Below, one piece after another: positions 10,095-43,995 of a stretch of DNA of 64,000 nucleotides (position 1 is the first letter of the stretch; each line of letters begins with the position of its first letter). The position numbers and the translations under genes are program-made. Below the pieces are notes generated by a model. That model ran no database searches. It was given only the letters and a program-made list of their open reading frames with translations, and had not been told where the DNA came from. The stretch is from the NCBI GenBank assembly GCA_965224435.1, contig OZ245048.1:2850182-2914181 (forward strand), read 5' to 3'. This DNA comes from Acidimicrobiales bacterium (GTDB lineage: Bacteria; Actinomycetota; Acidimicrobiia; Acidimicrobiales; SZUA-35).

Positions 10095-11044
10095 GACACA
10101 TCAACCGAAGTCGAAGACACAACCGAAGCGGTCGAAGACGGTGTCACCCCGCTCGAAGGCCCCGAAGCAGAACCGGCACCATTTCCATTGGTGGCGACAA
10201 CCGTAAACGTATAGGCGGTCCCAGTAGTCAATCCAGTGAACGTCAACGACAAGCCAGTACCCGACGACGCTGTCGCTCCACCCGGGCTCGCAGTGACCGT
10301 GTAGTCAGAAATCGCTGACCCATTCGCCGCAGCAGCGGTCCAGTCCAAATCAACCGAAGTCGGACTGGCAACCGAGGCGTTCGGAGTACCCGGTGAACCC
10401 GGACCAGCCGAAGGAGTGACGGAGTTCGAGGCGGCCGAAGCCGGGCTATCACCGGCACCGTTGCTCGCAACCACGGAGAACGTATAGGCAGTGCCCGGAG
10501 TCAACCCGGTCACCGCGACGCTGGTCGGTCCAGCTGTAGACCCGGTCAATCCGTCGGGCGAAGACGTCACGACATAGCCCGAAATCGCTGAGCCAGTATT
10601 CGTTGGCGCAGACCAGTTGACTGTGGCCGAAGTAGACGAGGCAACAACCGCAGTTGGTGGCCCAGGCGCATCCGGAACCGCGTCCGGTGTGATGGCAGCC
10701 GAAGCAGAACTCGCCGTTGAACCATCGGCGTTGATTGCCGTGACTATGAACGTGTAAGAAACGCCAGCGGTAAGACCCGTAACTTCTGCCGTGGTGGCAG
10801 CAGGATCAATGCCAGTGACTGGCCCACCGGCGACTGGAGTCGAATCGATGGTGAAGCTCGTAAGAGATGATCCCCCGTCTCCGGGAATCGCCCAGGTGAC
10901 GTCAACGGTCGTAGCTGAGGAGCTCGCTACGGTCGGGGCAGATGCGAAAGGATCTGGCACAGCGGCGAAGACCGGGGTCGTACTGAGCATGACCATGGCC
11001 ATTGCACTCACAACGATGGCAAGAATTTTTCGCATTCGACTCAT
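10070..11044 (-). CDS. N-terminal fragment of the same FN3 surface protein (signal peptide plus FN3 modules)
   Basis: 324 aa with a signal peptide MSRMRKILAIVVSAMAMVMLSTTPVFAAVP. It ends in ...TASVVSSTSVDVSWSAPAAG, and the same peptide reappears at the start of the 7488..10094 ORF. The two ORFs overlap by 25 nt in different frames. Confidence 0.7.
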   Translation of the reverse strand: MSRMRKILAIVVSAMAMVMLSTTPVFAAVPDPFASAPTVASSSATTVDVTWAIPGDGGSSLTSFTIDSTPVAGGPVTGIDPAATTAEVTGLTAGVSYTFIVTAINADGSTASSASAAITPDAVPDAPGPPTAVVASSTSATVNWSAPTNTGSAISGYVVTSSPDGLTGSTAGPTSVAVTGLTPGTAYTFSVVASNGAGDSPASAASNSVTPSAGPGSPGTPNASVASPTSVDLDWTAAAANGSAISDYTVTASPGGATASSGTGLSLTFTGLTTGTAYTFTVVATNGNGAGSASGPSSGVTPSSTASVVSSTSVDVSWSAPAAG

Positions 11045-11325
11045 TACCTAGCTCCGTAGTCCGCAATACCCACAATCGCCCATTCTGCCTCATCGACAGG
11101 ATCAACGACTGGCTGTAGTGAGAAATCACCTAACCGAAATCTGCTGACCACAAACCGGAGCCAGCCAACCACCCTCCGACCGCAAATCACGCCGTTTCTG
11201 GGTGAGGTTTCTGGCTGAGCCAGACTCCTCATACTTCCGCGTCAAGATGAAGTGGCAGCCATCACCCATTCGACCCCCACGCGTGACACAATCAGGGCAT
11301 AGAGGGAAACGAAAGGTCGCGAGCA

Positions 11326-13035
11326 ATGACAGCTAGCCGTGGAGTTCAGATCATTTCAGGGGACGGGTCGGTGGCGCGTTCAGGTCCACTTACTGTCGTC
11401 ACATCCGGCTCAGAAGCGACAGGGATCGCTGCCTTGGCCATGATCGATGTGCTGGCTACAACCAATAGTTGGACCTTTGAGGCGGTGGCCGCCGCCCTCC
11501 ACGAACTGGTCGTGGCCCAGAATCCATCGGGCGTCAGCGCCCTGCTCGATGATCCAGATGAACCAATCGTCTTCGTTTTCGACCGAGCAGAAGCTGTCAT
11601 CGGCAAGATCCGACACAAGGGTGATGGCCGAGCAGGATGGACAACCGAAGTTGTCCCCGGCCCACTCGTCGAGCTTCGCCTCGCCAGCGTGCCGTTCTCC
11701 TCCATCGACGAGGAAACCGAACTTCGTGCCGGTCTTGTTCGAGGAGCTGGGGCAGCGATACCCGTTGATGCTCCAGCCCCAGCTGAAGAGCCAACGGTCA
11801 CCGCAACGGAGGTCCCCGAAAGCGACATTGAGGCTGAGCCCGCAATGGTTGCTCCCACGTCCCAAGCAGTCGCTGAACCTGCACCCGCCTATGACGCTCC
11901 TCCAACGACCGTCGACCCCGGTGAAGCACTCGACGTCCCGACCGGTGAGATCAAGGACTTGCCCGCCCCCGAGCCCGTCGAAGTCTCGGTCCCGGCAACG
12001 GAAGCACCGGACTCATCCATCACCCCACCGCCACCCATGGAATTGCCAGACACCGATCCCGTGATTGACCCATTGCCAGCAGCTAGTGCCGATCATGCCA
12101 TGGAAGCGGGTGCTGCAGCAGTCGCTCCCGAAGCAGCCGAGGCTCCGCCGACTCCGCCCGTGCCAGAACCAATTCTTCATCAAGAAGCCACTAACTCACC
12201 GCCACCGCCACCTGCACCCGCCGATGATGCTTCTTCGGCCGGTCAGGCCCCGCCCATACCCAACCTCCCGCCAGCGCCAGACCTCGCAGCACCACCCGAC
12301 CTTCCGCCTGTACCAGACCTTGCAGCAGCTCCCGATCTGCCTCCCGCTCCGAGCTTCACTCCACCGGCGGAGGTTCTTTCCACCCCCGATCTTGCATCAG
12401 CTCCTTCGATCCTGACAGATTCACCTCCGATGCCACCCCCCGGCATGAGCCCACCGCCACCCGCAGATATTTCATCCAGTCCCGGTGCGTCGGACCTGCC
12501 TCTCATCCCAGACTTGCCGATGCCAAAGCAACCGTCGGCGCTTTCGGATCTAGCAGATCTGCCAAGTCCTGCACACCTGCCACCGCTCGAGGAACTTCCA
12601 CCCCTGTCCGAGCTTCCGCCACCCACGCCATTGGCAACACCGCCACCGGCTCCTACACCGGCAGCTCCACCACCGGCCCCCTCGACTGCACCCGCCCCGA
12701 TGACTCCGCCACCTGCCAATCCGCCACCTGCCAGTCCGCTGCCTGGAGCCCCGAGCGCACCACCGGCTCCTTTCATTGCAGAGCCCCCGGTTGCTGCACC
12801 GCCTCCTACTCCAGAGTGGGGACCGCCGACCCAGCCCGTGAGCAACCCACCAGTCGCGGACATGCCGCCGCCCGTACCTTCGAATCCTTTTCCGTCGGGT
12901 CCATCGCCAATCGATCCCGGAACTGAGCTTCCGCCAATGCCTCCACTCAGTGACGCCCCGGCGCCGCCGCCTCGCCCCAGCGGAGCAAACCCTGGTGACT
13001 CAGTGACGCCCCCGCCCCCTCCACCACCGGTCTAG
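11326..13035 (+). CDS. Proline-rich protein with a roughly 150-aa N-terminal globular domain and a roughly 400-aa low-complexity P/A/L/D tail
   Basis: 569 aa. No signal peptide or TM segment is evident. DLPPAPDLAAPPDLPPVPDLAAAPDLPPAP repeats. Ends in PPPPPPPV. Confidence 0.6.
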   Translation: MTASRGVQIISGDGSVARSGPLTVVTSGSEATGIAALAMIDVLATTNSWTFEAVAAALHELVVAQNPSGVSALLDDPDEPIVFVFDRAEAVIGKIRHKGDGRAGWTTEVVPGPLVELRLASVPFSSIDEETELRAGLVRGAGAAIPVDAPAPAEEPTVTATEVPESDIEAEPAMVAPTSQAVAEPAPAYDAPPTTVDPGEALDVPTGEIKDLPAPEPVEVSVPATEAPDSSITPPPPMELPDTDPVIDPLPAASADHAMEAGAAAVAPEAAEAPPTPPVPEPILHQEATNSPPPPPAPADDASSAGQAPPIPNLPPAPDLAAPPDLPPVPDLAAAPDLPPAPSFTPPAEVLSTPDLASAPSILTDSPPMPPPGMSPPPPADISSSPGASDLPLIPDLPMPKQPSALSDLADLPSPAHLPPLEELPPLSELPPPTPLATPPPAPTPAAPPPAPSTAPAPMTPPPANPPPASPLPGAPSAPPAPFIAEPPVAAPPPTPEWGPPTQPVSNPPVADMPPPVPSNPFPSGPSPIDPGTELPPMPPLSDAPAPPPRPSGANPGDSVTPPPPPPPV

Positions 13036-13086
13036 CAATCTCGTTGCCTTCGCAACGCCATCACTGACCTACCCGATTCTCCAGTT

Positions 13087-14448
13087 CTAACCGAGTAGCC
13101 AGTTCACGGGAACAAGTCCCGCTGCTTCGCCCTGGCGATAGCGATCCCGGGCCTGGATTGCTGCTTGACGCAGCGCGTGCTCCGGATCAAGGCCTAGCTG
13201 GCAGGCTTGATCAACCACAGCAAGGAGTAGCTGGCCAAGTTCGTACTCGCCAGCATCAGCCAGCAAGCCACGATCAAGAACTGCCGAGGCCAGAGCAGCA
13301 CCACTGGCATTCTGAGAGCGAGCTGCCTTTTCTTGAATCTTGTGAGCCAGACTGAGGGCAGGGAGGGCTGACGGGATTCCATCCATGATGGATGCACGTC
13401 CCTTCTCCACCTTCTTGATCGCCTCCCAGTTGGCCACAACATCATCGGCATCCTTGACCTCGGTCTCGGCGAAAACATGAGGATGACGAGCCACCAGCTT
13501 GTCATGAACCGTTCGGGCCACATCGCCAATGGAGAAGACGCCAGCCTCTGCTGCTAGCTCAGCATGAAAGAGGATCTGGAACCAGAGATCACCAAGTTCT
13601 TCTTCCAGATCAGCATACCCAGCGGCTCGTTCTCCCTCCTGACTAACAAGATCGTCCAAGGCTTCCAGCACCTCGTAGGTCTCTTCCAACAGGTAGCGCC
13701 GTAACGACTCATGGGTCTGCTTCTGATCCCACGGGCATTCCTGACGCAGCCGGTGCATCAGATCAACCGTCCGCTTGAGTTCGCCACCAACAGGAGCAAG
13801 AACCTCGGGCAGGAACAGTGAGGTCAGATGGTCTGGCTCAAATGACCGGTCGAGCTCAGGCCACGGGACCTCAAAGACTTCTTCATCTGGAGTACCAAGC
13901 CCCTTCAGAACAATCACTGTCTGCTCTGGGCCAGCATCCATGGCGAGTTTGATCTCGGACAATACCCAGGGCGCATGAGTATGGGCAATGAGGAGGGGCC
14001 CGGCCTGACCTTCAATCTCTTGAGAGAAGACATGACCATCCACCAACCGAACTCCGGCTTCAACCGGATCGATGGCCAGCCGGGCCCAGGCCACGTCCAA
14101 AAAAGACAAGGACGGAAGAATGTCGACCTCAACCCGAGTGTCAGCAAGCAGATGCATGACCGAGCGTTCAAGCACCAGGGGCGAACCCGGAACCACATAG
14201 AGAACTTCGCCAGAGTCTGTTGCGGCTTCGACCAGGCGGTCCGCAATCGTCCGGTAGACCTCGACTAGAGAGTTGCCAGCGTCGTAGACGTCGTCAAAGG
14301 TGATCGTCGCCTGGACCCGATGGGCCGTTGGGTGTCGCGAGGTGCGCAGAAAGCTCGGTACATCCGAGTCCAACGCCGAGGCTGTTGCCTCGGTGAGATC
14401 ACCCTCCCCGCCCGGACCAAGGCCACAGACGGTTACCCGTGGTGTCAT
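13087..14448 (-). CDS. mazG: Nucleoside triphosphate pyrophosphohydrolase MazG with an N-terminal tetrapyrrole-methylase-like domain (YabN-type fusion)
   Basis: 453 aa. The C-terminal half carries tandem MazG EExxE modules (EETYEVLEALDD; ELGDLWFQILFHAELAAEAG; ELGQLLLAVVDQACQLGLDPE). The N-terminal roughly 220 aa is TP-methylase-like (VTVCGLGPGGEGDLT). Confidence 0.8.
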   Translation of the reverse strand: MTPRVTVCGLGPGGEGDLTEATASALDSDVPSFLRTSRHPTAHRVQATITFDDVYDAGNSLVEVYRTIADRLVEAATDSGEVLYVVPGSPLVLERSVMHLLADTRVEVDILPSLSFLDVAWARLAIDPVEAGVRLVDGHVFSQEIEGQAGPLLIAHTHAPWVLSEIKLAMDAGPEQTVIVLKGLGTPDEEVFEVPWPELDRSFEPDHLTSLFLPEVLAPVGGELKRTVDLMHRLRQECPWDQKQTHESLRRYLLEETYEVLEALDDLVSQEGERAAGYADLEEELGDLWFQILFHAELAAEAGVFSIGDVARTVHDKLVARHPHVFAETEVKDADDVVANWEAIKKVEKGRASIMDGIPSALPALSLAHKIQEKAARSQNASGAALASAVLDRGLLADAGEYELGQLLLAVVDQACQLGLDPEHALRQAAIQARDRYRQGEAAGLVPVNWLLG

Positions 14449-15377
14449 TGACCTGGTTGCTGTACCGCCGGCGAGACAATCAATCGACCAGGGTCCCAGA
14501 ACCCGATCGTTGGATCGACGTCAACATCAGGCATCACCGACAGAACAGCCGAGATTCGCTGGCTAGCCAATTCAGCTGCATCGACTTCATCAAGGACAGT
14601 CTCTTCGTATTCATCAATGATGATGAGGTGGAAGCCGAACTGGGTCTCAACCGGACCAAGAATCTCGCCTTGCTCCCCAGCCAAGATTGCATCCCGGAAA
14701 GGCTCTACGAAACGGTCGGGGGCACTACAGCCAAGCGAACCGCCCTGGGCGCCGCTGCCAGGATCTTGCGAGAACTCAGACGCGAGGTCACCAAAGTCAG
14801 CACCTTGCTGGATCTGCCCCGCGAGGTCATCGGCCTCGTCTAAGGTTTCGACCAGAATGTGGCGGGTGCAGGGAATCAGAACCGTCTCAGCCTCAGGCTG
14901 GTTAGCAGCCAGCTCATCAGCCAGCGCACCTTGCTTGGCACGAATTCGACTCAGCGAGTCCAGATACGGAGCCAACTCTGCCACGATCTCACTCGTGACC
15001 GCTTGATCATTGAAGAGTCGGTCTACTTCAAGTAAAAATGCATCGCTGGACTCGACAAAAGCTGACTCTGGGACCGTGATTCCCTCGTCAACAAGCACAC
15101 TGTCAATGACTTTCTCGATGATCAAGGTCGTGAGCAGTTGGGCTTGAAACCCTTCGGGCATCTGACCAGAAAAGGCAGCGTCCAAGAAGCGTTGGCTTGA
15201 CTCGATTGAAGTAACGATGTCGGTGAGTTCGCTCGAAGCAATCTCAACCGAGTCGCCGTCGGGAATGTGGACCGTTGCAGCTGGGCCCCCGCGGGTTACA
15301 CCGCAGGCTGAAGCCAGCAACGTGAGCACGCCAAGGACGGCGAGCAGGATACGAGTATTCGTCGAGGAAGTCTTCAC
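14445..15377 (-). CDS. Parvulin-type peptidyl-prolyl isomerase lipoprotein (PrsA/SurA-like)
   Basis: Signal peptide with LLASAC-G (probable lipobox). C-terminal rotamase domain GGSLGCSAPDRFVEPFRDAILAGEQGEILGPVETQFGFHLIIIDE. Confidence 0.75.
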   Translation of the reverse strand: MKTSSTNTRILLAVLGVLTLLASACGVTRGGPAATVHIPDGDSVEIASSELTDIVTSIESSQRFLDAAFSGQMPEGFQAQLLTTLIIEKVIDSVLVDEGITVPESAFVESSDAFLLEVDRLFNDQAVTSEIVAELAPYLDSLSRIRAKQGALADELAANQPEAETVLIPCTRHILVETLDEADDLAGQIQQGADFGDLASEFSQDPGSGAQGGSLGCSAPDRFVEPFRDAILAGEQGEILGPVETQFGFHLIIIDEYEETVLDEVDAAELASQRISAVLSVMPDVDVDPTIGFWDPGRLIVSPAVQQPGQ

Positions 15378-24352: not shown

Positions 24353-25291
24353 ATGCGGGCCATGAATTCTCGGGTGGTGTTTGCGACGGTGATCTTGGTC
24401 GCCGTCTTGGTCGGCGGCAACTTCACCTCCCTCAAATTCGCCTTGGATCACACCACTCCGTTTCTCTTGACCTCCATGCGCACGGTGGTCGGTGGAATTG
24501 TCTTGACTTCGTTTGCTCTTCTGCGGGGTGAAGCCCTGCCCCGACGACGAGACGACCTGGTCCGGATTTTCGTCGTCTCCTTCAGCATCACCACCATCTC
24601 CAGCGCGCTCCTGGTCTTCGGAGTCAGCCGGGTGCCCGCCGGGGTGGCGTCCCTCTTGGCTTCAACCATGCCCCTGTTCACTGCCGTGCTTTCTTTTCTC
24701 CTGCTGAAAACGACACTGTCACGGCTTGCCGTTCTTGGCCTCTCGATCGGCTTCATGGGCACCATCATCTTGGCCATGCCCTCACTGGGTGGCCAAACCG
24801 CGGGCATCGGCATTGTGTCCATGGTTGTGTCGGCCTTGGCTTGGGCTTTCGGCACCGTGTACATGAAATGGAAGGACCTGAGCCGGGTCAGTCCAGTCAT
24901 GCTGGTCGGATGCCAACTCCTGATGTCCGCCGTTGTGCTGGTGCCCTTCGCCCTAGTGGTCGAAGGCACAGCAGACACTGATTGGAGCCTCGGCCTTGCT
25001 CTTCCTGTGGCCTACTCCGCCGTTCCCGGCATGGCCGTCACCTTCGCCCTCATCGCCACCGTGGTCCGCAAAGCCTCTCCGACCTTGGCCGCCTCAACCG
25101 CCTACGTCATTCCCGTCTTCGGTGTGCTATTCAGCTTCTTGATCCGCGGCGAAGTTCTGGGACTCGCCGAACTGGTCGGCGGCGTCTTCGTCCTGATCGG
25201 CGTCTACATCTTGATTCGGGCAACCGCCCCTCAAGCCCCGACTGAGCCGCCTCCGACTAGGCCACGCTCGGCCAGCGCGGCCCGAACCTGA
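24353..25291 (+). CDS. DMT-superfamily (EamA) transporter
   Basis: About 10 TM segments. Duplicated EamA halves. The start was chosen at the internal MRAMNSR; the track ORF starts at 24287. Confidence 0.75.
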   Translation: MRAMNSRVVFATVILVAVLVGGNFTSLKFALDHTTPFLLTSMRTVVGGIVLTSFALLRGEALPRRRDDLVRIFVVSFSITTISSALLVFGVSRVPAGVASLLASTMPLFTAVLSFLLLKTTLSRLAVLGLSIGFMGTIILAMPSLGGQTAGIGIVSMVVSALAWAFGTVYMKWKDLSRVSPVMLVGCQLLMSAVVLVPFALVVEGTADTDWSLGLALPVAYSAVPGMAVTFALIATVVRKASPTLAASTAYVIPVFGVLFSFLIRGEVLGLAELVGGVFVLIGVYILIRATAPQAPTEPPPTRPRSASAART

Positions 25292-25872
25292 TCAACCCCC
25301 TTGGTCAAAACCGCATCGATGCCCAGAGCAAGGGCGGCATCAATGTTCGGCTGGTTGTCGTCGACAAAGAGAATCTGTTCCGGTTCGACGTCCAGTTCGT
25401 TGCGAAGCTCGGCGATCACATGCTCGAAGATGATGGCATCAGGCTTGACCATGTCCAAGCTATAGGACGTGAACATACGATCGAACAGTTCGGCGATGAC
25501 CTCATGGTCGGTCTGGGTTTCCCAGTGCATCACATTGGTATTGCTCAAGACCGAGAAGGGCACGCCGTTTGACTTGAGTTCAACCAGAAGGTCTCGGGCG
25601 CCGGGGAAGAGACCCTTTGGCCAGCGAGCAAATCGCTCGATCAGTTCTTCACCAGACATGGCCAAACCAAGTTCTTTGACCAGCTCGGCCCCGAAGTACT
25701 CCGGGGTGCAGCGACCTCGCTCAAAGTGACGAACCGTTGGGCTGCGCAACCAACCCCGCCAGAAGTCGTCAACCGAGATCTCCTCTTCACCCAAGATGTC
25801 GCTGATGGGGCCCAGTTCGACCAGGACTCCCCCCATGTCAAACACAACAGTCTTGATTTTGGACTCACTCAT
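25231..25872 (-). CDS. HAD-IA family hydrolase
   Basis: 213 aa: VVFDMGGVLVEL (motif I DxG) ... SNTN ... FVDDNQPNIDAA (motif IV). It begins 66 nt downstream of the giant ATPase stop. Confidence 0.75.
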   Translation of the reverse strand: MSESKIKTVVFDMGGVLVELGPISDILGEEEISVDDFWRGWLRSPTVRHFERGRCTPEYFGAELVKELGLAMSGEELIERFARWPKGLFPGARDLLVELKSNGVPFSVLSNTNVMHWETQTDHEVIAELFDRMFTSYSLDMVKPDAIIFEHVIAELRNELDVEPEQILFVDDNQPNIDAALALGIDAVLTKGVDQVRAALAERGLVGGGSVGA

Positions 25873-25938
25873 GGGGCAATCACTTTCTGCTATCGAAAAC
25901 CGAATACGAGCAATAGCTGCATCACGGTGTTCGAGGGG

Positions 25939-28900
25939 TCAGTCAGGTTCTTCGGGCGGAGCTGGTTCGGACACCCAGTCTGGCGGTTTCTGACGGACTT
26001 TTGGCTTACTCGCGCCAACATGGATATCGGGAGTGAAATGGATGTCGGGCTGGTTGTTGAAGGCATCGGCCACTGACTCAATAGCGGCAACCAGCCGAGT
26101 TGCCGGATCGCGATCGTCGCCGCCGAGGCGTTGTTGACGACGAAAGGTCGCCAGAATGTCACTCCAACGCTGCCGCTGCACATCAGTCATTGAGTCTCGA
26201 AGCTCAGCCAGGCGCAGCAGATTCCATTCTGCCGCACCAGTCAAGGCCTGAGACTCTGCCGCATAGTGTTCATCGATCAAACGATCGACCTCATCCGAAG
26301 TCATGATTGGCAACAACTTCGAGGCCATCCTGGCCATATTTCGATACGAGCCCTGCAACAGGAATGGCGGCTCTGTTCGATACTGATCATCGGTCGCAGC
26401 CGACGCGATGTATTGACGATTAACCGAAAGCACGACCTCTTGCACCTGACGAAGGTGGCGCAGGGTCATCACCATCTCATTCACTTCAACCGAGGAGTAG
26501 GAACCATCAAGCATTGACTCTTCAATTGCAGCCGATCCTGCGGCCCCATCCGACGCACGGAATAACCGATTGAGATCTTCGGGGCTGCTTCCTGCCAGTG
26601 GAGCGAGGGCGGGATTCGAGGTTAGAGCGTTCTCCAGATAGCTCCGAGCAAACACTTCTTCGTTGCCGGACAGCACATCACCAAGGTTGTAGGTGTCGGC
26701 ACGGTTAGCCAACATGTCCGGAATTCGGAAGCGCTCCCCCGATTCGGTATAGGGGTTGCCGGCCATGACGACGGCAAACCGCTTTCCGCGAAGATCAAAG
26801 GATCGGGCTGACCCATCCCAGACGCCCTCGATTCGACGCTGCGCATCACACAAGGAGATGAATCGTTGCAGGAATTCCGGATTGGTGTGCTGGATGTCAT
26901 CCAGATACAAGATCACGTTGGCGCCAACAGCAAAGGCCAGGTTGATGCGTTCGATCTCCCGGGCAGCGGTTGCGCTTGGGGCCTGAGCCGGGTCCAACGA
27001 GGTGACCTCATGACCCAATCCGGGCCCGGACACCTTAACCAGGGCCATGCCCAGGCGATCAGCGATGTACTCAACCAGCGTGGTCTTGCCGTAGCCAGGA
27101 GGCGACAACAGCATCAACAATCCTGACCTGGCTCCCACCTGGTCATCAATGGTTCCGATCTGGCGTGCCAGATTGTCGCCAATCAGCGGCAGGTAGACCT
27201 GGTCAATGAGCTGATTGCGAACAAAACCTTCGGGAACTTGCGGCTCCAGACCATCAAGGCGCAGCGAATCTCGCAGCTCGGTCAGGGCAATATCGCGGGC
27301 CGCGGTAAAGGCACTATGGCGAGGAACACCTTCCGCATTGTGCAGTCGGACTTGCTGGATCACCTGATCGATTCGCCCGCTGAGAGTTCCCGCCTCCACT
27401 GTCTGGTGGCGGCCGGTCAGGCCTTCAACGGCGAAAGCCAGGTCAACATCGACGAGGCGCCTCGGCAGTTCGGGTAGCACAAGGCAGACAACAAGCTCGG
27501 CCACCAGATGAGAATTCGGCGCACCAACCTTACCTTCGACATAGTCGCTGACCAGGACCAATGCGCCGTCCCGGTCACCGTCGAGGTCCTGAACCATGGC
27601 CGCAACGACCTCGTCCTTCGCCAGCTTCTTCATCCAATCAACAACCGCCGGCGATTGGGCAAAGGCGAATCTCGCTGATCGAAATAGTTCGCCAATCAAG
27701 TACCGGGCTATGGGCCAGACGGTGTTGCTGGGCTTGTCCTGGTCGTCATTGTTGGTGAGATCCAGCACCAGCTGCTGAGCTAGTTCATCCAATGTCGACG
27801 GCTCCACCCGAATCTCTGAGGCGGCATCACCCCGCTCAACCCAACGCTCGCGTCCCTTGTCATCCAATCGCTCGGCCCAGGCCAGCTGAGCCGCGGCTCG
27901 AACCGGGCCAGGAGTCAAAAGAGACTCAGCGCTCAAGGCCAACTGTCCAAGTTCGCGAAGGATCAAGGCGGCATCCATGTCGTGAACACCACGGTCATAA
28001 CCTTCAGAGAGTCGCTGATCGACCTGGTCCTGCACCAGTCGCAGGATCCCATCAGATTCCGTGTCAGAGCCTGCTCCGGATCCTATGTCGAAGGCCTTCT
28101 GCGGGCTCTCGCCGGTCGCATCTCGCCCAGCCAACATGTCCAGAATCATGTCGACGGCCAGGTAGGTCGCCCGGTAGAGATCGGCGGTCTCTGACCGCAG
28201 GGGCCGCTCCCACATATCGCGATCAGCCAAACCATCAGAGCCAGCCGAATCATTGGAAGACGTCGTCTGCAGGGCAATCCGCAAGTCGGTCCCTGTCAGG
28301 ACCGCCTCCAGATGATCCTTGCCGGGAACAATGGTCAGCTCCCGTCGGCGATCATCCACACTGAACCGGTGCCGTCCAAGTTTGACGGCATCACCATCGA
28401 AAAGGTCTGCCCGGTCCCGCAAGGCACGGACAGCGCCATCGCGAGCACTTCCGATTCGAGCCTGCAATTCATCGGCCCGGACCGGTTCGCCAAGCTCACG
28501 GAGGTCATCAAGCAGACCACGAACACGCGCCACCATCGGGTCTGCAGCAAAGAAGCCATTGACATCATCGGTTGAGGGCAGGTTGGCTGCTCGGTCCGCC
28601 ACCCGGTCCAGAGTGCGAACAGCTGCTCCCACCAATCGCTCGGCCCGCTGTTGACGATCATCCACCAATTGCTGACGGCGTGAGGACAAGGCTTCGGTGA
28701 CCTGGTCACGACGTTGCCCAAGCTCATCCAACTGATCTTCGGTCCGAGGCCCAGCTGTCTCCAGTTGTTCCAGCTGCAGCATGAGCCGAGCTAGCGCCTC
28801 GTCACAAGCCTCCGGGGTTGAGGCACGGCCAACTGCGGTGGCAATGGATTGGCCAAGTAAGCCAATTTCGGTAGCGAAGGCCGCACCCGTCTCCAATTGG

Positions 28901-31056
28901 ATGAGCAGGTCGTTGCGAGACTCGACAACGGCTCGAGCCCGATTGACCTCGGCCAAGACACCAGAGACTTGTGACAGCACCGAGGTCCGAACACGAGGAT
29001 CGTCAACGACCAGATCGCCGACAGTGCTGGCAACCAGATCCATCGAGTCGGAGAGCTGATCAACTTCAACCAGAAGCTCACCAGCCTCCACCGACGATTC
29101 AGTTAGAGGCGCCTGCTCGGAAATGACTGACAATCGTTGATGGTAACTACTGAATGCCCCATCAGTTGACAGGTGACGGGCCGCCTCTTGGGCCAATCCA
29201 TCATGGGCAGCCTCAGCCTGACCGATGAGCTCTTCCACTCTGACAACGTCAATCTCTCGACGCTCCTTGATGGTGTGGAGATGACCGATCTCCCGCCGAA
29301 CAACGGCCAGTCCGGCGATGAAACCCTCGGTGTCTTGGGGTGGGGAGAGTCGGAACTCTTCTAAGGCTTTGGAAAGAGAGACCTCAGCTTCGGCCAGGGC
29401 TTCGGCCGCGCCGGCCTCGACCTCCTTCATCCGTTCGAACTCGTCCAGGACCTGCTCGGCTACCAATCGAATGTCGCGGGCAGGGCTGGCCAGATCACCA
29501 GTTTCGTCGTCACCGGCCCAGTGATGAACATCGACGAACCGTCCGGCGGAGCTAAGAAGGTCGCCATAGACCGCAGCGCTCGCCTCGACTTCGCCGACCA
29601 GTCGAGCGAGGGCTAATGCGTCGGCGATCCCACTAACCAACGAAGCGTTGCCAATCCGATCGAATTCAGAGTTCTGATGGGGCTGCTTGGCCGCGAACTC
29701 ATCGGAGAAGAAGGGAGTGATCCACGTCTGGATCGGATGGATGCGGGTTGGTGTCGGCTCTTCTCGAAAGACGACCATGGTGCCGTCGTCAAAGATCGTG
29801 TGACCGTGGCACCAGATTGGAGCCGCTACTTCCTGGCGCACGACGTTGTAGGTCAACAGAATCGAGCGGCCGCCTGCCTGCTCATAGAAGATGTACATGA
29901 CATCTTCACCGTTTGGCGAGCGAACGACTTCGAGCAACTCCATGTCGGTAACGTCGAGATCAAAGGTCCGAACTTCACCGGTTTTGAGGTAGACACCCTC
30001 AGGAAAGATCAGACCCTGATCGTCGGGAAGTTGGCGAAAAGCATCACCCAAGCTATCCAAGCGAACAGCAGAGTGAGCTAGCCGGTTGACCACGTAGTAG
30101 CGGTGGTCATTCTCGCCGTAGGGCAACAGATCGACAAGAACAAGATCACCGGCGACGGCCCAACTGATCTCGCAATCTTGTAGCGACTGATCGGCATGCT
30201 CTAGACGATCCTCCAACAGGAGACTGCCCGCTCCACCGTCATCGAGAAGAATCTGCAGCGACCCACCAAGAGGATTGATCAGGACACGCTCAGACAACTT
30301 GATAAGTGACCGATCCAGGTGATCGGCCCGTGTGCTTTTGGTCCACTCAACATCTTGAGACGCAGGAAAGGAATGATCTCGCTCGCCCCGAGCATCAAGG
30401 TAGCGAAGTTCGTTGTCGGGCGAAATCTCCCAACGCAGAACACGAATGTCGCCTACGCCTGAGCCAGTCCGGAAGACCGCGAGTAGGCGATTTCCGGTTC
30501 GGTACAGCTGTTGAAGCGAAGTCTGCTTGAAGTAGGTGTGCAGCTCTTCGAAGTCACGGCGGAACTGGTCGTCATCCAAGACCGATCCGGTCAGACCTTC
30601 GGGGTTCGGGCTGAAACTCACCTGACCTGGGGCATCTGACGCAACGTCGTCGCCAAGTTCGAGGTGATGGACCGCAAAGATGTCTTCGGGCCGAACGTTG
30701 TCGGACACTCCGCTGACTGCGTTGTACGCCAGGACCAGTTGATCGCCAATATTGGCGACATCACGAGGAACGGCGTTGGCCTCGGTCCGAACTCGCTCCG
30801 TACCAAGCAGTTCGAACGGCGACGAGCCAAACGCTTCGAGCCGCATCGCGTTGAGCGAATTTGCTCGTGTGGTCAGCTCGCCGGCCGCTGCTTCCAGTCG
30901 ACCCCGCAAGAGAGCGTAAGCACTCTGGGAAACCCGCGAGGTCTCGTTGCCTGGTTCGCCAGACTCTGATCCGATCTGATCAGATCCGATCTGCTCGGGG
31001 CCCTCTTGGGCAGACGAAATACTGTCCGTCGTCTGGTTCTGTGGTTCGTCGCTCAC
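25939..31056 (-). CDS. Giant (1705 aa) MoxR-like AAA+ ATPase with a long coiled-coil and helical N-terminal and central region (DUF3686-like, 'DNA repair ATPase'-type)
   Basis: Walker A LLSPPGYGKTTLVEY and Walker B ILYLDDIQ. AAA_5/MoxR-type sensor region VVMAGNPYTESGERFRIPDMLANRADTYNLG in the C-terminal third. Extensive predicted coiled coil between roughly residues 500-1000. Acidic N-terminus. Its start overlaps the flotillin stop by 4 nt. Confidence 0.75.
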   Translation of the reverse strand: MSDEPQNQTTDSISSAQEGPEQIGSDQIGSESGEPGNETSRVSQSAYALLRGRLEAAAGELTTRANSLNAMRLEAFGSSPFELLGTERVRTEANAVPRDVANIGDQLVLAYNAVSGVSDNVRPEDIFAVHHLELGDDVASDAPGQVSFSPNPEGLTGSVLDDDQFRRDFEELHTYFKQTSLQQLYRTGNRLLAVFRTGSGVGDIRVLRWEISPDNELRYLDARGERDHSFPASQDVEWTKSTRADHLDRSLIKLSERVLINPLGGSLQILLDDGGAGSLLLEDRLEHADQSLQDCEISWAVAGDLVLVDLLPYGENDHRYYVVNRLAHSAVRLDSLGDAFRQLPDDQGLIFPEGVYLKTGEVRTFDLDVTDMELLEVVRSPNGEDVMYIFYEQAGGRSILLTYNVVRQEVAAPIWCHGHTIFDDGTMVVFREEPTPTRIHPIQTWITPFFSDEFAAKQPHQNSEFDRIGNASLVSGIADALALARLVGEVEASAAVYGDLLSSAGRFVDVHHWAGDDETGDLASPARDIRLVAEQVLDEFERMKEVEAGAAEALAEAEVSLSKALEEFRLSPPQDTEGFIAGLAVVRREIGHLHTIKERREIDVVRVEELIGQAEAAHDGLAQEAARHLSTDGAFSSYHQRLSVISEQAPLTESSVEAGELLVEVDQLSDSMDLVASTVGDLVVDDPRVRTSVLSQVSGVLAEVNRARAVVESRNDLLIQLETGAAFATEIGLLGQSIATAVGRASTPEACDEALARLMLQLEQLETAGPRTEDQLDELGQRRDQVTEALSSRRQQLVDDRQQRAERLVGAAVRTLDRVADRAANLPSTDDVNGFFAADPMVARVRGLLDDLRELGEPVRADELQARIGSARDGAVRALRDRADLFDGDAVKLGRHRFSVDDRRRELTIVPGKDHLEAVLTGTDLRIALQTTSSNDSAGSDGLADRDMWERPLRSETADLYRATYLAVDMILDMLAGRDATGESPQKAFDIGSGAGSDTESDGILRLVQDQVDQRLSEGYDRGVHDMDAALILRELGQLALSAESLLTPGPVRAAAQLAWAERLDDKGRERWVERGDAASEIRVEPSTLDELAQQLVLDLTNNDDQDKPSNTVWPIARYLIGELFRSARFAFAQSPAVVDWMKKLAKDEVVAAMVQDLDGDRDGALVLVSDYVEGKVGAPNSHLVAELVVCLVLPELPRRLVDVDLAFAVEGLTGRHQTVEAGTLSGRIDQVIQQVRLHNAEGVPRHSAFTAARDIALTELRDSLRLDGLEPQVPEGFVRNQLIDQVYLPLIGDNLARQIGTIDDQVGARSGLLMLLSPPGYGKTTLVEYIADRLGMALVKVSGPGLGHEVTSLDPAQAPSATAAREIERINLAFAVGANVILYLDDIQHTNPEFLQRFISLCDAQRRIEGVWDGSARSFDLRGKRFAVVMAGNPYTESGERFRIPDMLANRADTYNLGDVLSGNEEVFARSYLENALTSNPALAPLAGSSPEDLNRLFRASDGAAGSAAIEESMLDGSYSSVEVNEMVMTLRHLRQVQEVVLSVNRQYIASAATDDQYRTEPPFLLQGSYRNMARMASKLLPIMTSDEVDRLIDEHYAAESQALTGAAEWNLLRLAELRDSMTDVQRQRWSDILATFRRQQRLGGDDRDPATRLVAAIESVADAFNNQPDIHFTPDIHVGASKPKVRQKPPDWVSEPAPPEEPD

Positions 31057-32948
31057 TTGCCGATGCGGCGTAGCAGGTCAGCTACCGACAGGTCGCGAAG
31101 ACCTTCCGGACCAAGGCCACCAATGGCTTCGGCCAGCTTGGCTACCAGATCCTCATCACCGTCAAGGTAAGGATCAAGGGCGGTTTCGGCCACATCGGAC
31201 TTCTCGACAAAGGCATCCAGGGCCTTGCCCGAACCAATGGCACCAATCACTCGGTCGACAAAGATGTCCGAGCCACCAACGATGTCAATATCGGCACTTT
31301 CGAGTCCGGCCTTCATGGCGTCAGCTTGGGCCTCGGCAATATCAACCTGGGCACCGACTGCAGCCAGACGGACCTTGGTATCGGCTTCAAGTTCACGAAC
31401 AAATTCTTCGTGCTCTTGACCAACACCCTCAAGCTCGCGCATCGCCGCCGCCTTCTCGGTCAGACCAGCGGCCTCACCCTTCAGCTTCGCTTCGGCGATC
31501 TCGGCTTCGGCTAGTCCAGCGACTCGCAACTTGTCGGCTTCGGCCTGACCCATCTCACGAACCACAATGGCCCGGGCCCGGTCAACGTCAACCACGGCCA
31601 AGCCGCTGGCGGCTTCTTCGGCCTTGACGCCTTCAGCCAAACGAATCTTGGCCTGAGCGCTCAGTTCCGCTGCTTCCATTTCAGCCTGAGCCAGCGTCAG
31701 CTGACGCTTGGCTTCATGACCAGACGCAGTCTCAGCTGCTTCTGCTTCCTTGATGTCTTTGACCAACGCACCCTGCGCCTCGGCTTCGGCGGCAATAACG
31801 ACGGCGTCACGCTCACGATTGGCTTGCTCGACTACCCGCAAGGTCGCGATCTGCTCCTCTTGCTCAGCCACCGTCTTCTCGACGGCGACACGGCCGCGCT
31901 TGATGTCCGCAATGACGCTCATTTCTTCTTCGAGCGCCTTTTCTGCGGCCAAGGTTTCGACCTGGCGGCTCATGTTCTCCAGCTCGGCTGCCTTGCGAAC
32001 ACGCTCGGCCTCGACCCCAAGCACTCGCTCGCGGTTCTTGGCTGCAACCTCAATTTCGCGCTGCAGATTCTCTTGCTCGACCCCAAGCTTCTGGTCAACC
32101 TCGAGGGTGGCCATCTCGGCCCGCAAGCGCTCCTCAGCCTTAACCTTGTCAATGGTCGCCTGCTCGCGGTGGCGTACCGCTTGGATCTCGCGATGCTGAC
32201 GAGCTTCGGCATCGGCTTGCTGACGCTCGAGTTCCAGCACGGCTTCGCGAGTCTCAACATTCTTGGCCGTGATCTGCTTGGCTTCGTTGTTGGCAATGTT
32301 ATTGGTGGCTACGTGCTCGATAGCAGTCAGCTCGGTAATCTTGCGGATGCCTTGGGCATCGAGAATATTGTCCGTATCCAAACTGGCCAGCGGAGTTTGC
32401 TCCAGGTAGTCAATGGCGACGTCTTCCAGCGAATAGCCGTTCAGATCGGTACCAATGACCTCGATGATCCGGTCACGGAAGGTGGCTCGCTCGGTGTAGA
32501 GCGAGACGAACTGCATCTGCTTACCGACAGTCTTCAACGCCTCGGAGAACTTCGCAGTGAACAGCTCTTCAAGCGTCTCGCGCTCTGATGCTCGCTCACA
32601 ACCAATGGCCTGAGCCACCTTGATCACGTCTTCTTCAGCCTTGTTGACTCGGACGAAGAAGTTGACCTTGATGTCGGCCCGGATGTTGTCCTCACAAATG
32701 AGTCCCTCCGTGCCACGACGATCAATCTCGATGGTCTTGACCGAGATGTCCATCATCTCCGCCTTGTGCAAGACGGGAACCACGATCTGGCCGGTGAAGG
32801 TCACCACAACCTTCTTCATGGTGCTGACAACCAGTGCCTTACCCTGAGGCACCTTTCGATAGAGCCGGGAGAAGACCAGGCCGATGACGGCCGCCAACAT
32901 CAAGAAGACGAAGACGACAACAAGAACTATTCCAATTGCTGTGGACAC
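31053..32948 (-). CDS. floT: Flotillin-like SPFH/Band-7 protein (FloT/YuaG-type)
   Basis: 631 aa. N-terminal membrane hairpin (IGIVLVVVFVFLMLAAVIGLVF). SPFH domain. Long E/A/R/K-rich coiled-coil flotillin region (EAEARQHREIQAVRHREQATIDKVKAEERLRAEM...). Confidence 0.85.
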   Translation of the reverse strand: MSTAIGIVLVVVFVFLMLAAVIGLVFSRLYRKVPQGKALVVSTMKKVVVTFTGQIVVPVLHKAEMMDISVKTIEIDRRGTEGLICEDNIRADIKVNFFVRVNKAEEDVIKVAQAIGCERASERETLEELFTAKFSEALKTVGKQMQFVSLYTERATFRDRIIEVIGTDLNGYSLEDVAIDYLEQTPLASLDTDNILDAQGIRKITELTAIEHVATNNIANNEAKQITAKNVETREAVLELERQQADAEARQHREIQAVRHREQATIDKVKAEERLRAEMATLEVDQKLGVEQENLQREIEVAAKNRERVLGVEAERVRKAAELENMSRQVETLAAEKALEEEMSVIADIKRGRVAVEKTVAEQEEQIATLRVVEQANRERDAVVIAAEAEAQGALVKDIKEAEAAETASGHEAKRQLTLAQAEMEAAELSAQAKIRLAEGVKAEEAASGLAVVDVDRARAIVVREMGQAEADKLRVAGLAEAEIAEAKLKGEAAGLTEKAAAMRELEGVGQEHEEFVRELEADTKVRLAAVGAQVDIAEAQADAMKAGLESADIDIVGGSDIFVDRVIGAIGSGKALDAFVEKSDVAETALDPYLDGDEDLVAKLAEAIGGLGPEGLRDLSVADLLRRIGK

Positions 32949-32984
32949 TATTTCCCTCTACTTTTCTCTAGAACAACCATCAAA

Positions 32985-33674
32985 CTAAACCAGGCCTTCG
33001 ACGTCTGGGGAGACGAGGTAGTCGCCACCCTCATCAACCGAGACAATCAAGGCTTGTGACCCCGCTCCGAGACGGTTAGGGGTCTGACAACGCACCTGAA
33101 TGATGTGACTTCCCGACACTGAGTCAACCGCTTCAGCCTGTCCAAACAGGGTGCTCACGCTTCCGGTTCGAATGGTGCAAATCCGGCCAATGAGATCGGC
33201 TCGGCGGATATGAGGCTCGGGCACAAAGACCGGAGCTAGAACGATTGCGATCTTGCCAGCAATGAACATTCCTGCAAGCAGGCTGGCCAAGGTCAATGCC
33301 AGGCCAACCAGGGTTGCGGTACTACCTCCAGCCGAGGTGAGAGCCAATGTTCCCAAAGCTGACACCAAGAAACCAACCAGTGAGATGACCGTAAGCACCA
33401 GGGCCACTGGCATCAGGTGCAGGTCGAAAGCCTGCAAGATCCCAACCAAGAACCCGTTGGAGCTTCCGGCTCCGTCGCCACCAGCGTCACTACCAATGTC
33501 ACCAGCATCAGCACCGACGTCACCGGCAACATCACCGCCAAGGTCGAGATCAAGGTCACCGCCACCGCTCTCAAAACCAAGCAACACCGACAAGATCCAG
33601 TAACCAGCGGACACCAAAAGGACCGTGGTGAAGATGACCGTTGGATATCCAAACGCAATTTCAATGACTCGCAT
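32985..33674 (-). CDS. NfeD-like membrane protein (YuaF-type) with a C-terminal OB-fold
   Basis: TM-rich N-terminus and a C-terminal beta-barrel segment (GRICTIRTGSVSTLFGQAEAVDSVSGSHIIQVRC...ALIVSVDEGGDYLVSP). A 36-nt gap separates it from the flotillin gene. The start was taken at the internal MRVIEIAF; the track ORF extends to 33761. Confidence 0.75.
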   Translation of the reverse strand: MRVIEIAFGYPTVIFTTVLLVSAGYWILSVLLGFESGGGDLDLDLGGDVAGDVGADAGDIGSDAGGDGAGSSNGFLVGILQAFDLHLMPVALVLTVISLVGFLVSALGTLALTSAGGSTATLVGLALTLASLLAGMFIAGKIAIVLAPVFVPEPHIRRADLIGRICTIRTGSVSTLFGQAEAVDSVSGSHIIQVRCQTPNRLGAGSQALIVSVDEGGDYLVSPDVEGLV

Positions 33675-33788
33675 GCCGCTGCTCAGTCCTCCCTGTTCCG
33701 CATCATAGGTTCTCGGATGTAACGAAGGGGGCATGAAAGAAGTTCCCATAACTTCCGCCATTCCTCAGCGTGCCTCTAGCATCGCTGG

Positions 33789-35268: not shown

Positions 35269-35847
35269 ACTGTCTAAACGTCAACCTGTTTGGCGTCGTC
35301 CCAAGCCTGTTGGGTCTTGGGGCTCATACGTCTTGGGTACAGACCCCCAAATGTTCAAGGACCGACAACGAACGGCCGTAGTGGTGGGTGCGGAACTCTC
35401 CGCGTAGCGAGACGTTGACTCTGGGGCCAGTAGTGGTCGCCTTATCCCCAGAGGAGTCAGTGGCGAAACCGACGTTGATCTATTCAACTGTCGGGTCACC
35501 CGACACATCACCTGATCGGTGGTTATCGCAAAAGACTGTGCCATGGAAATCATGTCACGAACAATCATTCCCCCAGAATCCTCACAACCTATTCGCGTCG
35601 TCTGCTCTACCCAACCGATAGCAGATGACCACCTTCAGCTTCAAGGCATGCATATATGCCTTGAAGGGGACTGGTTAGCGGCCTCGTGTCGCGCCATTTC
35701 CCATCGCTGGCCACTCGTCTGGCTCCGGTGGTGGATGAAAGTTTCGCCCACTTTCACACGCGTGAGACATGATGGTTGGTTCGGCTCCCGCTGGAACCAA
35801 GCATTCATGCCCTTCGCACCACCCCCGGACGCCGGCCGCTGGCCAAG

Positions 35848-43796: not shown

Positions 43797-43922
43797 GTGA
43801 TTCCCCTGAAGTGTGCACGAGTTCTCGCCGACTCTGGCCTGACACCAACGCCGTTCGTGGCGCCGGGAGCAGCATAGGGGGACGAGTGGATGACGCCACT
43901 AAGGATTTGTTAGCTCCCGGGG

Positions 43923-43995
43923 TTGGATTCGAACCAACGACGACCGGATTCAAAGTCCGGCGTTCTGCCAGCTGAACTACCCGGGAAGGATGAGC
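43923..43995 (-). tRNA. glnU: tRNA-Gln (anticodon TTG)
   Basis: Folded by hand from the minus strand: 7-bp acceptor TCCCGGG/CCCGGGA with U1:A72 and G73 discriminator, D arm GTTC-AGCTGGCA-GAAC, anticodon stem CCGGA/TCCGG with loop CTTTGAA (anticodon TTG), T arm GTTGG-TTCGAAT-CCAAC. 73 nt, no encoded CCA. Confidence 0.8.

Follow-up and report, generated by a model that had tools for sequence, protein, structure and literature searches.

The window analysed here is a 64,000-nt stretch of contig OZ245048.1 from an Acidimicrobiales bacterium, and coordinates are positions within it unless another locus is named. Its minus strand carries four closely spaced open reading frames (ORFs), and three of them, coding for an NfeD/YqiJ-like membrane protein, a flotillin and a giant AAA+ ATPase, make up the cassette that this work is about. 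The genes and their closest junction are the following.

32985-33761, minus strand: NfeD/YqiJ-like ORF, 258 aa.
31053-32948, minus strand: flotillin ORF, 631 aa, GTG start.
31053-31056, minus strand: 4-nt overlap GTGA of the flotillin stop with the GTG start of the ATPase, read from the DNA.
25939-31056, minus strand: giant ATPase ORF, 1705 aa, GTG start; a soluble protein named 'DNA repair ATPase' by NCBI.
25231-25872, minus strand: HAD hydrolase ORF, 213 aa, ATG start, with HAD domains recognized by Pfam.

An initial annotation of this DNA had pointed to the tight packing of the four ORFs, and both the ORF list and our reading of the DNA bear it out: 36 nt separate the stop of the NfeD-like gene from the flotillin GTG, which has a Shine-Dalgarno-like GAGGG 6 nt upstream; the flotillin and ATPase genes share the four letters listed above; and 66 nt lie between the ATPase stop and the HAD ATG. 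The overlap is compatible with a possible translational coupling of flotillin and ATPase. A scan of the operon for promoters and terminators gave nothing over shuffled expectation, and base composition is even throughout the window, at about 58% GC.

The evidence that three of these genes belong together comes from related loci. These were retrieved with a scan for two peptide patterns of the ATPase family, one of them LQGSYRNM, in one genome per GTDB species, which gave at least 592 loci. Eighty were kept for neighbourhood counts, and they come from Actinomycetota, Myxococcota, Gamma- and Betaproteobacteria, Acidobacteriota and one Clostridia metagenome-assembled genome (MAG). Searching with the window proteins by tblastn, we found the flotillin gene directly upstream of the ATPase gene, and on the same strand, in 76 of the 76 loci with enough upstream DNA, an adjacency far beyond chance. 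A hidden Markov model (HMM) of the family placed the YqiJ-like gene directly upstream of flotillin in about 67 of 72 loci, and all-against-all clustering of the flanking ORFs of the 80 loci revealed no other family common across lineages. Moreover, loci whose flotillin is closer in identity to the window copy tend to have a closer ATPase as well (r=0.80, n=73). The three proteins are inherited together and are probably translated together, and these observations support the view that they form a conserved functional unit. The grouping of NfeD, flotillin and ATPase proposed in the initial annotation is therefore a conserved neighbourhood. The tight coupling that had been claimed for flotillin and ATPase holds only in part: the window has its overlap and the same 4-nt overlap is found in 15 of 76 loci, but only about half of the loci are tight (at most 30 nt between the two genes in 38 of 76), and in 13 loci more than 150 nt intervene.

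The HAD hydrolase had also been counted as a member of the operon, a claim that we reject. Indeed, tblastn found it in none of the 80 loci, and it is syntenic only in a close relative, GCA_024280015.1, whose ATPase is 87% identical to the window copy and in which the window synteny recurs. A second NfeD-like paralogue considered for Streptomyces loci was discarded too, as the extra ORFs look like GC-rich alternative-frame ORFs and the HMM found none.

Some of the wider flotillin-ATPase junctions hold further sequence. A Pseudomonas locus (L031) has a 79-aa ORF on the plus strand (9577-9816) between flotillin and ATPase, with a TerB match just below threshold (23.8 bits for a cut-off of 24.4, E=6e-5), and this ORF may be an extra, lineage-specific component; similar gaps of 410-460 nt are present in L067, L077 and L080. 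At the same place in Lampropedia hyalina, an insertion of 3.4 kb (L079:6664-10054) contains an α/β-hydrolase, an NYN-domain protein and a toxin-antitoxin pair made of a nucleotidyltransferase and a HepT-like protein (MNT-HepT).

The identity of the small membrane protein had been given as an NfeD/YuaF-like OB-fold protein, which stands in part. The protein itself has no Pfam, NCBIfam or PDB sequence match, even at E=10, and its family profile meets the YuaF structure 2k14 only weakly (E=0.39). However, the family alignment can be tied to E. coli YqiJ (DUF1449) by hhalign, with a probability of 90% and E=1.5e-6; one of 20 orthologues has a YqiJ_OB match in Pfam (E=2e-4), and the Hymenobacter orthologue is annotated as DUF1449 family. 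Hydropathy yields three hydrophobic segments (residues ~35-65, 104-146 and 147-182), after which come an acidic Gly/Asp linker and a β-rich C-terminal domain of ~70 aa, and this topology, together with the position next to an SPFH gene, fits the NfeD/YqiJ (DUF1449) family. The true start of the gene is probably Met30 of the ORF, at ~33674, because the alignment of 20 orthologues begins at that residue.

The flotillin was likewise reached through its family. An HMM search had been proposed for it, and here there is no Pfam, NCBIfam or PDB sequence match to the protein, even at E=10, nor did the family profile find anything in the PDB. What stands is the relationship to YqiK: the family alignment of 18 orthologues matches E. 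coli YqiK with a probability of 99.9% (hhalign, E=5e-33, 28% identity over 420 columns that take in the SPFH region of YqiK), and Band_7 (PF01145) is found in three of the 18 orthologues, at best with E=5e-11. Homologues are annotated as flotillin family or as YqiK, and a few carry PF01145. Profile comparison thus points to a YqiK-type flotillin (SPFH/band-7) for the 631-aa protein and to a YqiJ/NfeD-like inner-membrane protein for its neighbour, since both identities come from the hhalign comparisons with YqiJ and YqiK and from scattered Pfam matches among orthologues. The flotillin has one transmembrane-like segment (residues 1-31, by hydropathy), its N-terminal membrane anchor, followed by a divergent SPFH domain, then by a long helical stretch rich in Glu and Ala, and finally by a conserved C-terminal part with an IDIVGG motif. 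An AlphaFold2 (AF2) model built with 35 homologues has a mean predicted local distance difference test score (pLDDT) of 58.9, with the SPFH part below 50 and long helices (residues 195-551) at medium-to-low confidence, and is therefore too poor for a fold search. Across phyla the ATPase-linked flotillins are 42-72% identical among themselves, as against 28% to E. coli YqiK, and they form a distinct subfamily. E. coli YqiJ-YqiK and B. subtilis YuaF-FloT (YuaG) share the two-gene core and its order with the cassette, but in E. coli K-12 no ATPase follows yqiJ-yqiK, and sibD/ibsD lie there instead.

The third protein is the largest. It begins with an acidic tail, which leads into a predicted β-propeller; helical bundles come next, and after them a divergent AAA+ module and a C-terminal region that is conserved. 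The landmarks are the following.

29521-30879, minus strand (residues 60-512): DUF3686 domain, predicted as a β-propeller of ~6-7 blades after one long helix; Pfam E=2.2e-147.
27367-29520, minus strand (residues 513-1230): helical middle region of long helices and bundles, including DUF7902.
28912-29157, minus strand (residues 634-715): DUF7902, Pfam E=1e-18.
28357-28377, minus strand: invariant motif GRHRFSV, with a small β unit around it.
26647-27234, minus strand (residues ~1275-1470): AAA+ core, Pfam AAA and AAA_5.
27082-27096, minus strand (residues 1321-1325): Walker A, GYGKT.
26896-26913, minus strand (residues 1382-1387): Walker B, ILYLDD, with Asp-Asp in place of Asp-Glu.
26695-26760, minus strand (residues 1433-1454): sensor-1 and Arg segment, GNPYTESGERFRIPDMLANRAD.
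26077-26646, minus strand (residues 1471-1660): conserved C-terminal region after the AAA+ core, with invariant columns among homologues.
26335-26358, minus strand: invariant LQGSYRNM motif in the C-terminal region.

The acidic N-terminus and the DUF3686-like architecture, both pointed out in the initial annotation, are confirmed, the first by nine acidic residues and one basic among the first 45 and the second by the Pfam match listed above. Hydropathy shows no transmembrane-like segment in the ATPase, and Pfam no protease domain. The AF2 model of residues 41-1240 (55 sequences) reaches a mean pLDDT of 85.6 and has, in order, a long helix, ~25 β-strands at model residues 42-406, ~400 residues of long helices, a β unit and more helical domains. 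All top matches of this model in a Foldseek search of the PDB are β-propellers (IFT-A, Vps18, the trilobed protease, Ski8 and WD40 proteins, with E from 3e-8 to 1e-3), and the structure prediction thereby confirms DUF3686 as a propeller. The region beyond the AAA+ core (1471-1660) presumably comprises the AAA lid together with a helical domain particular to this family.

This architecture is stable across the family. Searching 1.84 billion representative proteins with HMMER, we found 592 relatives of the propeller domain, 187 of them at E≤1e-30; in these, DUF3686 is always N-terminal in proteins of 1600-1900 aa, save for shorter entries that we take as fragments, and the family is therefore a compact one with a single architecture. 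Homologues that show the same Pfam architecture over a full length of 1600-1900 aa are plentiful, and an end-to-end alignment of 14 diverse members has a mean column identity of 55%. We also considered whether the ORF could be a chimera of two genes and rejected it, as the ATPase is kept as a single full-length ORF in 79 of 80 related loci and aligns from end to end. The remaining case is an Actinoplanes MAG (L011:10013-14812), where the gene is read as two ORFs, 10013-10897 and 10985-14812, probably through a frameshift or an assembly error.

The Walker A, Walker B and sensor motifs that had been read in the 1705-aa protein are all present, and profile detection of an AAA+ module succeeds, with Pfam AAA (29.6 bits, cut-off 21.2) and AAA_5 (28.9 bits, cut-off 22) both passing their gathering cut-offs. 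Across the 14 diverse homologues K1324, D1386, D1387, N1434 and R1452 do not vary, and GYGKT, LYLDD and the sensor Asn are invariant in the family. Compared with the PDB, the family profile matched Rix7, Rpt3, NVL, p97 and RuvB, around the P-loop only; hhalign aligned the AAA region with E. coli RavA over 22 P-loop columns (probability 18%) and with FtsH over 36 columns (probability 91%). In its P-loop half the module bears a closer resemblance to classical AAA proteins (FtsH, Rix7, Rpt3). Because the matches to PDB entries, RavA and FtsH are all confined to the P-loop region, the module is treated here as a divergent AAA+ outside any assigned clade.

These results bear on the names that the protein has been given, which can be taken at face value as a DNA-repair ATPase or as a MoxR-type chaperone ATPase with a VWA/MIDAS partner. 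Like RavA of the RavA-ViaA (MoxR-VWA) pair, the window ATPase has a single AAA+ module with an above-threshold AAA_5 match, and it contains a motif, NP..E..G...P....R, which we take to recall MoxR. Unlike RavA it is three times longer, has another N-terminal architecture and no VWA partner gene: no conserved VWA/MIDAS gene was found among the neighbour families of the 80 loci. With these differences and an alignment to RavA restricted to the P-loop, we reject MoxR membership, and the 'MoxR-like' label of the initial annotation falls. The DNA-repair reading, in turn, derives from NCBI and Pfam, where the family is called 'DNA repair ATPase' or 'ATPase involved in DNA repair', a name carried by many of the homologues that we retrieved. 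Gene context lends it no support, as the 80 neighbourhoods have no recurrent DNA-related or repair gene, and the partners that do recur are all membrane proteins. Nor does the protein itself, in which Pfam and NCBIfam identify no DNA-binding or nuclease domain and the RuvB P-loop matches lie far under the cut-offs. A literature search returned no paper naming DUF3686 or PF12458, nor any that brings flotillin together with 'DNA repair ATPase'. Either form of this explanation seems to us very improbable.

Clues to the function come instead from the genes that accompany the trio in particular lineages, among which we scanned for PspA, DUF2170, phospholipase D (PLD), rhomboid, PucR and TrkA_N. Extensions of the trio by YjfI(CesT/Tir)-PspA, rhomboid and phospholipase D genes are a feature of Gammaproteobacteria and Bacteroidota. 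In 11 proteobacterial loci the trio comes immediately after genes for DUF2170 (YjfI) and PspA/IM30, and in eight loci a PLDc_2 (HKD phospholipase D) gene lies downstream of it. The ATPase stop is overlapped or directly adjoined by a rhomboid gene in six gammaproteobacterial loci (L031, L053, L067, L072, L073 and L077), and in a seventh, L068, the rhomboid gene follows after 311 nt; rhomboid genes are also found upstream of the cassette in an Acidimicrobiales MAG (L001:5148-5984) and on pQBR103 (L082:1370-1924). On this plasmid the trio is preceded by a cluster of the form yjfI-pspA-rhomboid-DUF2491-DUF350-DUF1190-glutathionylspermidine-synthase-like, and on a Hymenobacter plasmid by a CesT/Tir-type chaperone gene and PspA. 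In ~20 Streptomyces loci there is a PucR-type gene (GGDEF_2 + HTH_30) near the cassette, divergent and upstream in 19 of them (e.g. L070:1177-2406, minus strand) and downstream on the same strand in L052, which makes it a candidate lineage-specific regulator.

Cassettes of this type are already known, having been defined computationally in 2024. As part of a comparative-genomic description of the phage-shock (membrane-repair) network, Ravi et al., 2024 (mSystems 9:e00847-23, PMC11237479) reported operons that join a CesT/Tir-PspA dyad to three components: a band-7/flotillin protein, a three-TM protein of which YqiJ and YuaF are the prototypes, and a "novel AAA+ ATPase with β-propeller and coiled coil". 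In some Proteobacteria the operon also includes an HKD phospholipase D, and abbreviated operons without PspA are explicitly noted; the supplement lists for Dokdonia a YqiJ-YuaF gene and a Band-7+coiled-coil+flotillin gene, followed by a β-propeller+coiled-coil+AAA-ATPase gene. The window cassette shares with these operons the three protein architectures and the gene order, including a β-propeller and a helical region that precede the AAA+ module, and related loci reproduce the CesT/Tir(YjfI)-PspA dyad and the HKD phospholipase D. It differs in having the trio only, with no PspA, CesT/Tir or PLD in 64 kb. As our independent survey reproduces every element of the published description, and as PspA, DUF2170, PLD and rhomboid are missing from the window, the window cassette is the abbreviated form; it is a typical copy and offers little that is new by itself. 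The claim that no system with such a composition had been characterised therefore needs correction, since the trio had been described, but it holds as far as experiments go, none having been found. The authors proposed a chaperone-like assembly of sub-membrane complexes, and the excerpts of their article used here present this as a computational result and report no experiment; nor do these excerpts name DUF3686, the rhomboid linkage or the near-absolute adjacency of flotillin and ATPase. A 2025 review (PMC7619361) describes the roles of the band-7 partners of PspA as undetermined and a Vps4-like ATPase as apparently absent in bacteria, and according to excerpts of PMC8581546 an SPFH protein of B. 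subtilis is needed to link PspA to the membrane.

On balance, the likeliest reading, which we consider somewhat probable, is that the cassette serves membrane maintenance, with its ATPase remodelling assemblies of flotillin, and of PspA. Among the functions suggested in the initial annotation, a role in membrane stress is the best supported, because the recurrent partners (PspA, rhomboid and phospholipase D) are membrane-related. In such a scenario the flotillin would be anchored in the membrane via its N-terminal segment, and its long helices would mediate oligomerisation into a ring- or dome-shaped assembly facing the cytoplasm, like solved SPFH assemblies, with the NfeD-like partner sitting in the membrane patch thus enclosed. 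The ATPase would dock on this scaffold via its propeller or its helical arm and use ATP to assemble, remodel or dismantle it, and where PspA is encoded next door it may also act on PspA/ESCRT-III-like polymers. The remodelling would serve to maintain damaged membrane or to repair it. The pairing of an SPFH cage with an AAA+ machine has a precedent in HflK/C-FtsH, and the solved SPFH assemblies include QmcA-YbbJ.

Several points weigh against this reading. The contact between ATPase and flotillin, the direction in which the ATPase acts and the stress that triggers it are parts of the scheme that we infer, and cage formation is argued by analogy because the flotillin model is of low confidence (pLDDT 58.9). 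The position of pore loop 1 is occupied by an invariant GP.LGH.V.S.DP segment and not by the aromatic-hydrophobic-Gly loop of threading unfoldases, as judged from an alignment to FtsH made by eye; with this segment and the Asp-Asp of Walker B, a Vps4-like threading mechanism is not implied. A tblastn search with representatives found PspA, DUF2170, PLD and rhomboid nowhere in the 64-kb window, and no stress regulator adjoins the cassette there. Patchy distribution and carriage on plasmids would also fit a conflict system, and our literature search found no experiment on any member of the cassette.

A more specific version of the membrane-maintenance reading is possible, although we doubt that it holds in this detail. 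Here the DUF3686 ATPase would be a dedicated assembly and disassembly machine for flotillin cages, a Vps4-like or NSF-like recycler whose propeller grips the C-terminal region of flotillin while its helical arm levers the cage open. The comparison with Vps4-ESCRT-III and PspF-PspA is apt in that an AAA+ protein is tied genomically to a membrane-remodelling polymer, related cassettes directly following PspA/IM30, the bacterial ESCRT-III. It is less so in other respects: the window ATPase lacks MIT, NtrC-type and HTH domains, its AAA+ module is unrelated to theirs beyond the fold, and the window has no PspA.

The rhomboid genes and the nature of the P-loop raise another possibility, namely quality control of membrane proteins in the manner of HflK/C-FtsH or prohibitin-m-AAA, with a flotillin/NfeD cage that corrals clients, an AAA+ protein that extracts or unfolds them and, where present, a rhomboid that cleaves them. 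There is general precedent for an SPFH scaffold coupled to a membrane AAA+ machine; the P-loop half of the window ATPase most resembles FtsH, Rix7 and Rpt3, and aligns best with FtsH and classical AAA; and rhomboid is linked to the ATPase stop in the seven gammaproteobacterial loci given above and occurs also at L001 and on pQBR103. But homology to HflK/C-FtsH is confined to the AAA+ core. FtsH is embedded in the membrane and carries a protease domain, whereas the window ATPase is soluble and protease-free, with a β-propeller and a long helical arm in addition, and lacks, on our reading by eye, the canonical aromatic pore loop. Moreover, rhomboid is absent from the window and from most loci. 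We regard quality control as unlikely.

The distribution of the cassette brings in a third alternative, an anti-phage or conflict system in which the trio would detect infection at the membrane and respond by saving the cell or sacrificing it, as in defence of the dynamin-like DynA/Eleos type. The cassette is widespread and patchy over at least six phyla and has probably been transferred horizontally; the ATPase gene is present on 13 plasmid or replicon records, including P. fluorescens pQBR103 and megaplasmids of Deinococcus, Hymenobacter, Vibrio and Streptomyces. One locus, that of Lampropedia, has its MNT-HepT pair and NYN gene between flotillin and ATPase, and a dynamin-like membrane remodeller is a precedent, as it gives phage resistance in B. 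subtilis (excerpts of PMC8844932). Against this, matches of the ATPase in PADLOC-DB 2.0 are of P-loop length only (IetA, E 0.002-0.009), amounting to P-loop noise, and the other three proteins match nothing in it. No record in the phage collection carries the ATPase gene, the neighbours in the window are metabolic genes, no defence gene recurs in the 80 flanks, and sequence conservation is unusually high for such a system. The anti-phage role suggested in the initial annotation is thus not borne out, and we hold this explanation to be quite improbable.

The membrane-maintenance reading in its more specific form, if true, would make the ATPase the first regulator of any SPFH microdomain to depend on energy, and would offer a testable biochemical cycle for bacterial flotillins. 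To our knowledge, none of the characterised partners of flotillin scaffolds consumes energy. In each informative genome that we examined, a giant AAA+ protein accompanies a flotillin of this distinct and highly conserved subfamily, and the direct adjacency of the cassette in several lineages to PspA, the bacterial ESCRT-III, provides a handle for studying flotillin/PspA assemblies. To what was already described, the present work adds the near-absolute adjacency, the co-variation of identities, the structure prediction of the propeller and the linkage to rhomboid; it also discards the MoxR and DNA-repair labels and excludes the HAD gene.

The surroundings of the cassette in the window include genes for a molybdopterin oxidoreductase, HxlR, an EamA transporter, the HAD hydrolase, an aldehyde dehydrogenase and DUF169, and the closest named relatives are Acidimicrobiales MAGs. 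A few genes past the cassette of the relative GCA_024280015.1 there is a toxin-antitoxin pair of PSK_trans_fac and PIN type (L086:19674-20335). Two RNA features of the window lie outside the cassette. The first is a match to the c-di-GMP-II-GAG riboswitch aptamer (RF03169) at 35399-35483 on the plus strand, with an Rfam score of 49.5 bits (gathering score 40, E=1e-6), flanked by the aldehyde dehydrogenase gene on one side and by the DUF169 gene, in opposite orientation, on the other; the plus-strand ORFs downstream of it all appear non-coding. The second is a single tRNA-Gln gene (anticodon TTG) at 43913-43986 on the minus strand, on which ARAGORN and Rfam agree.

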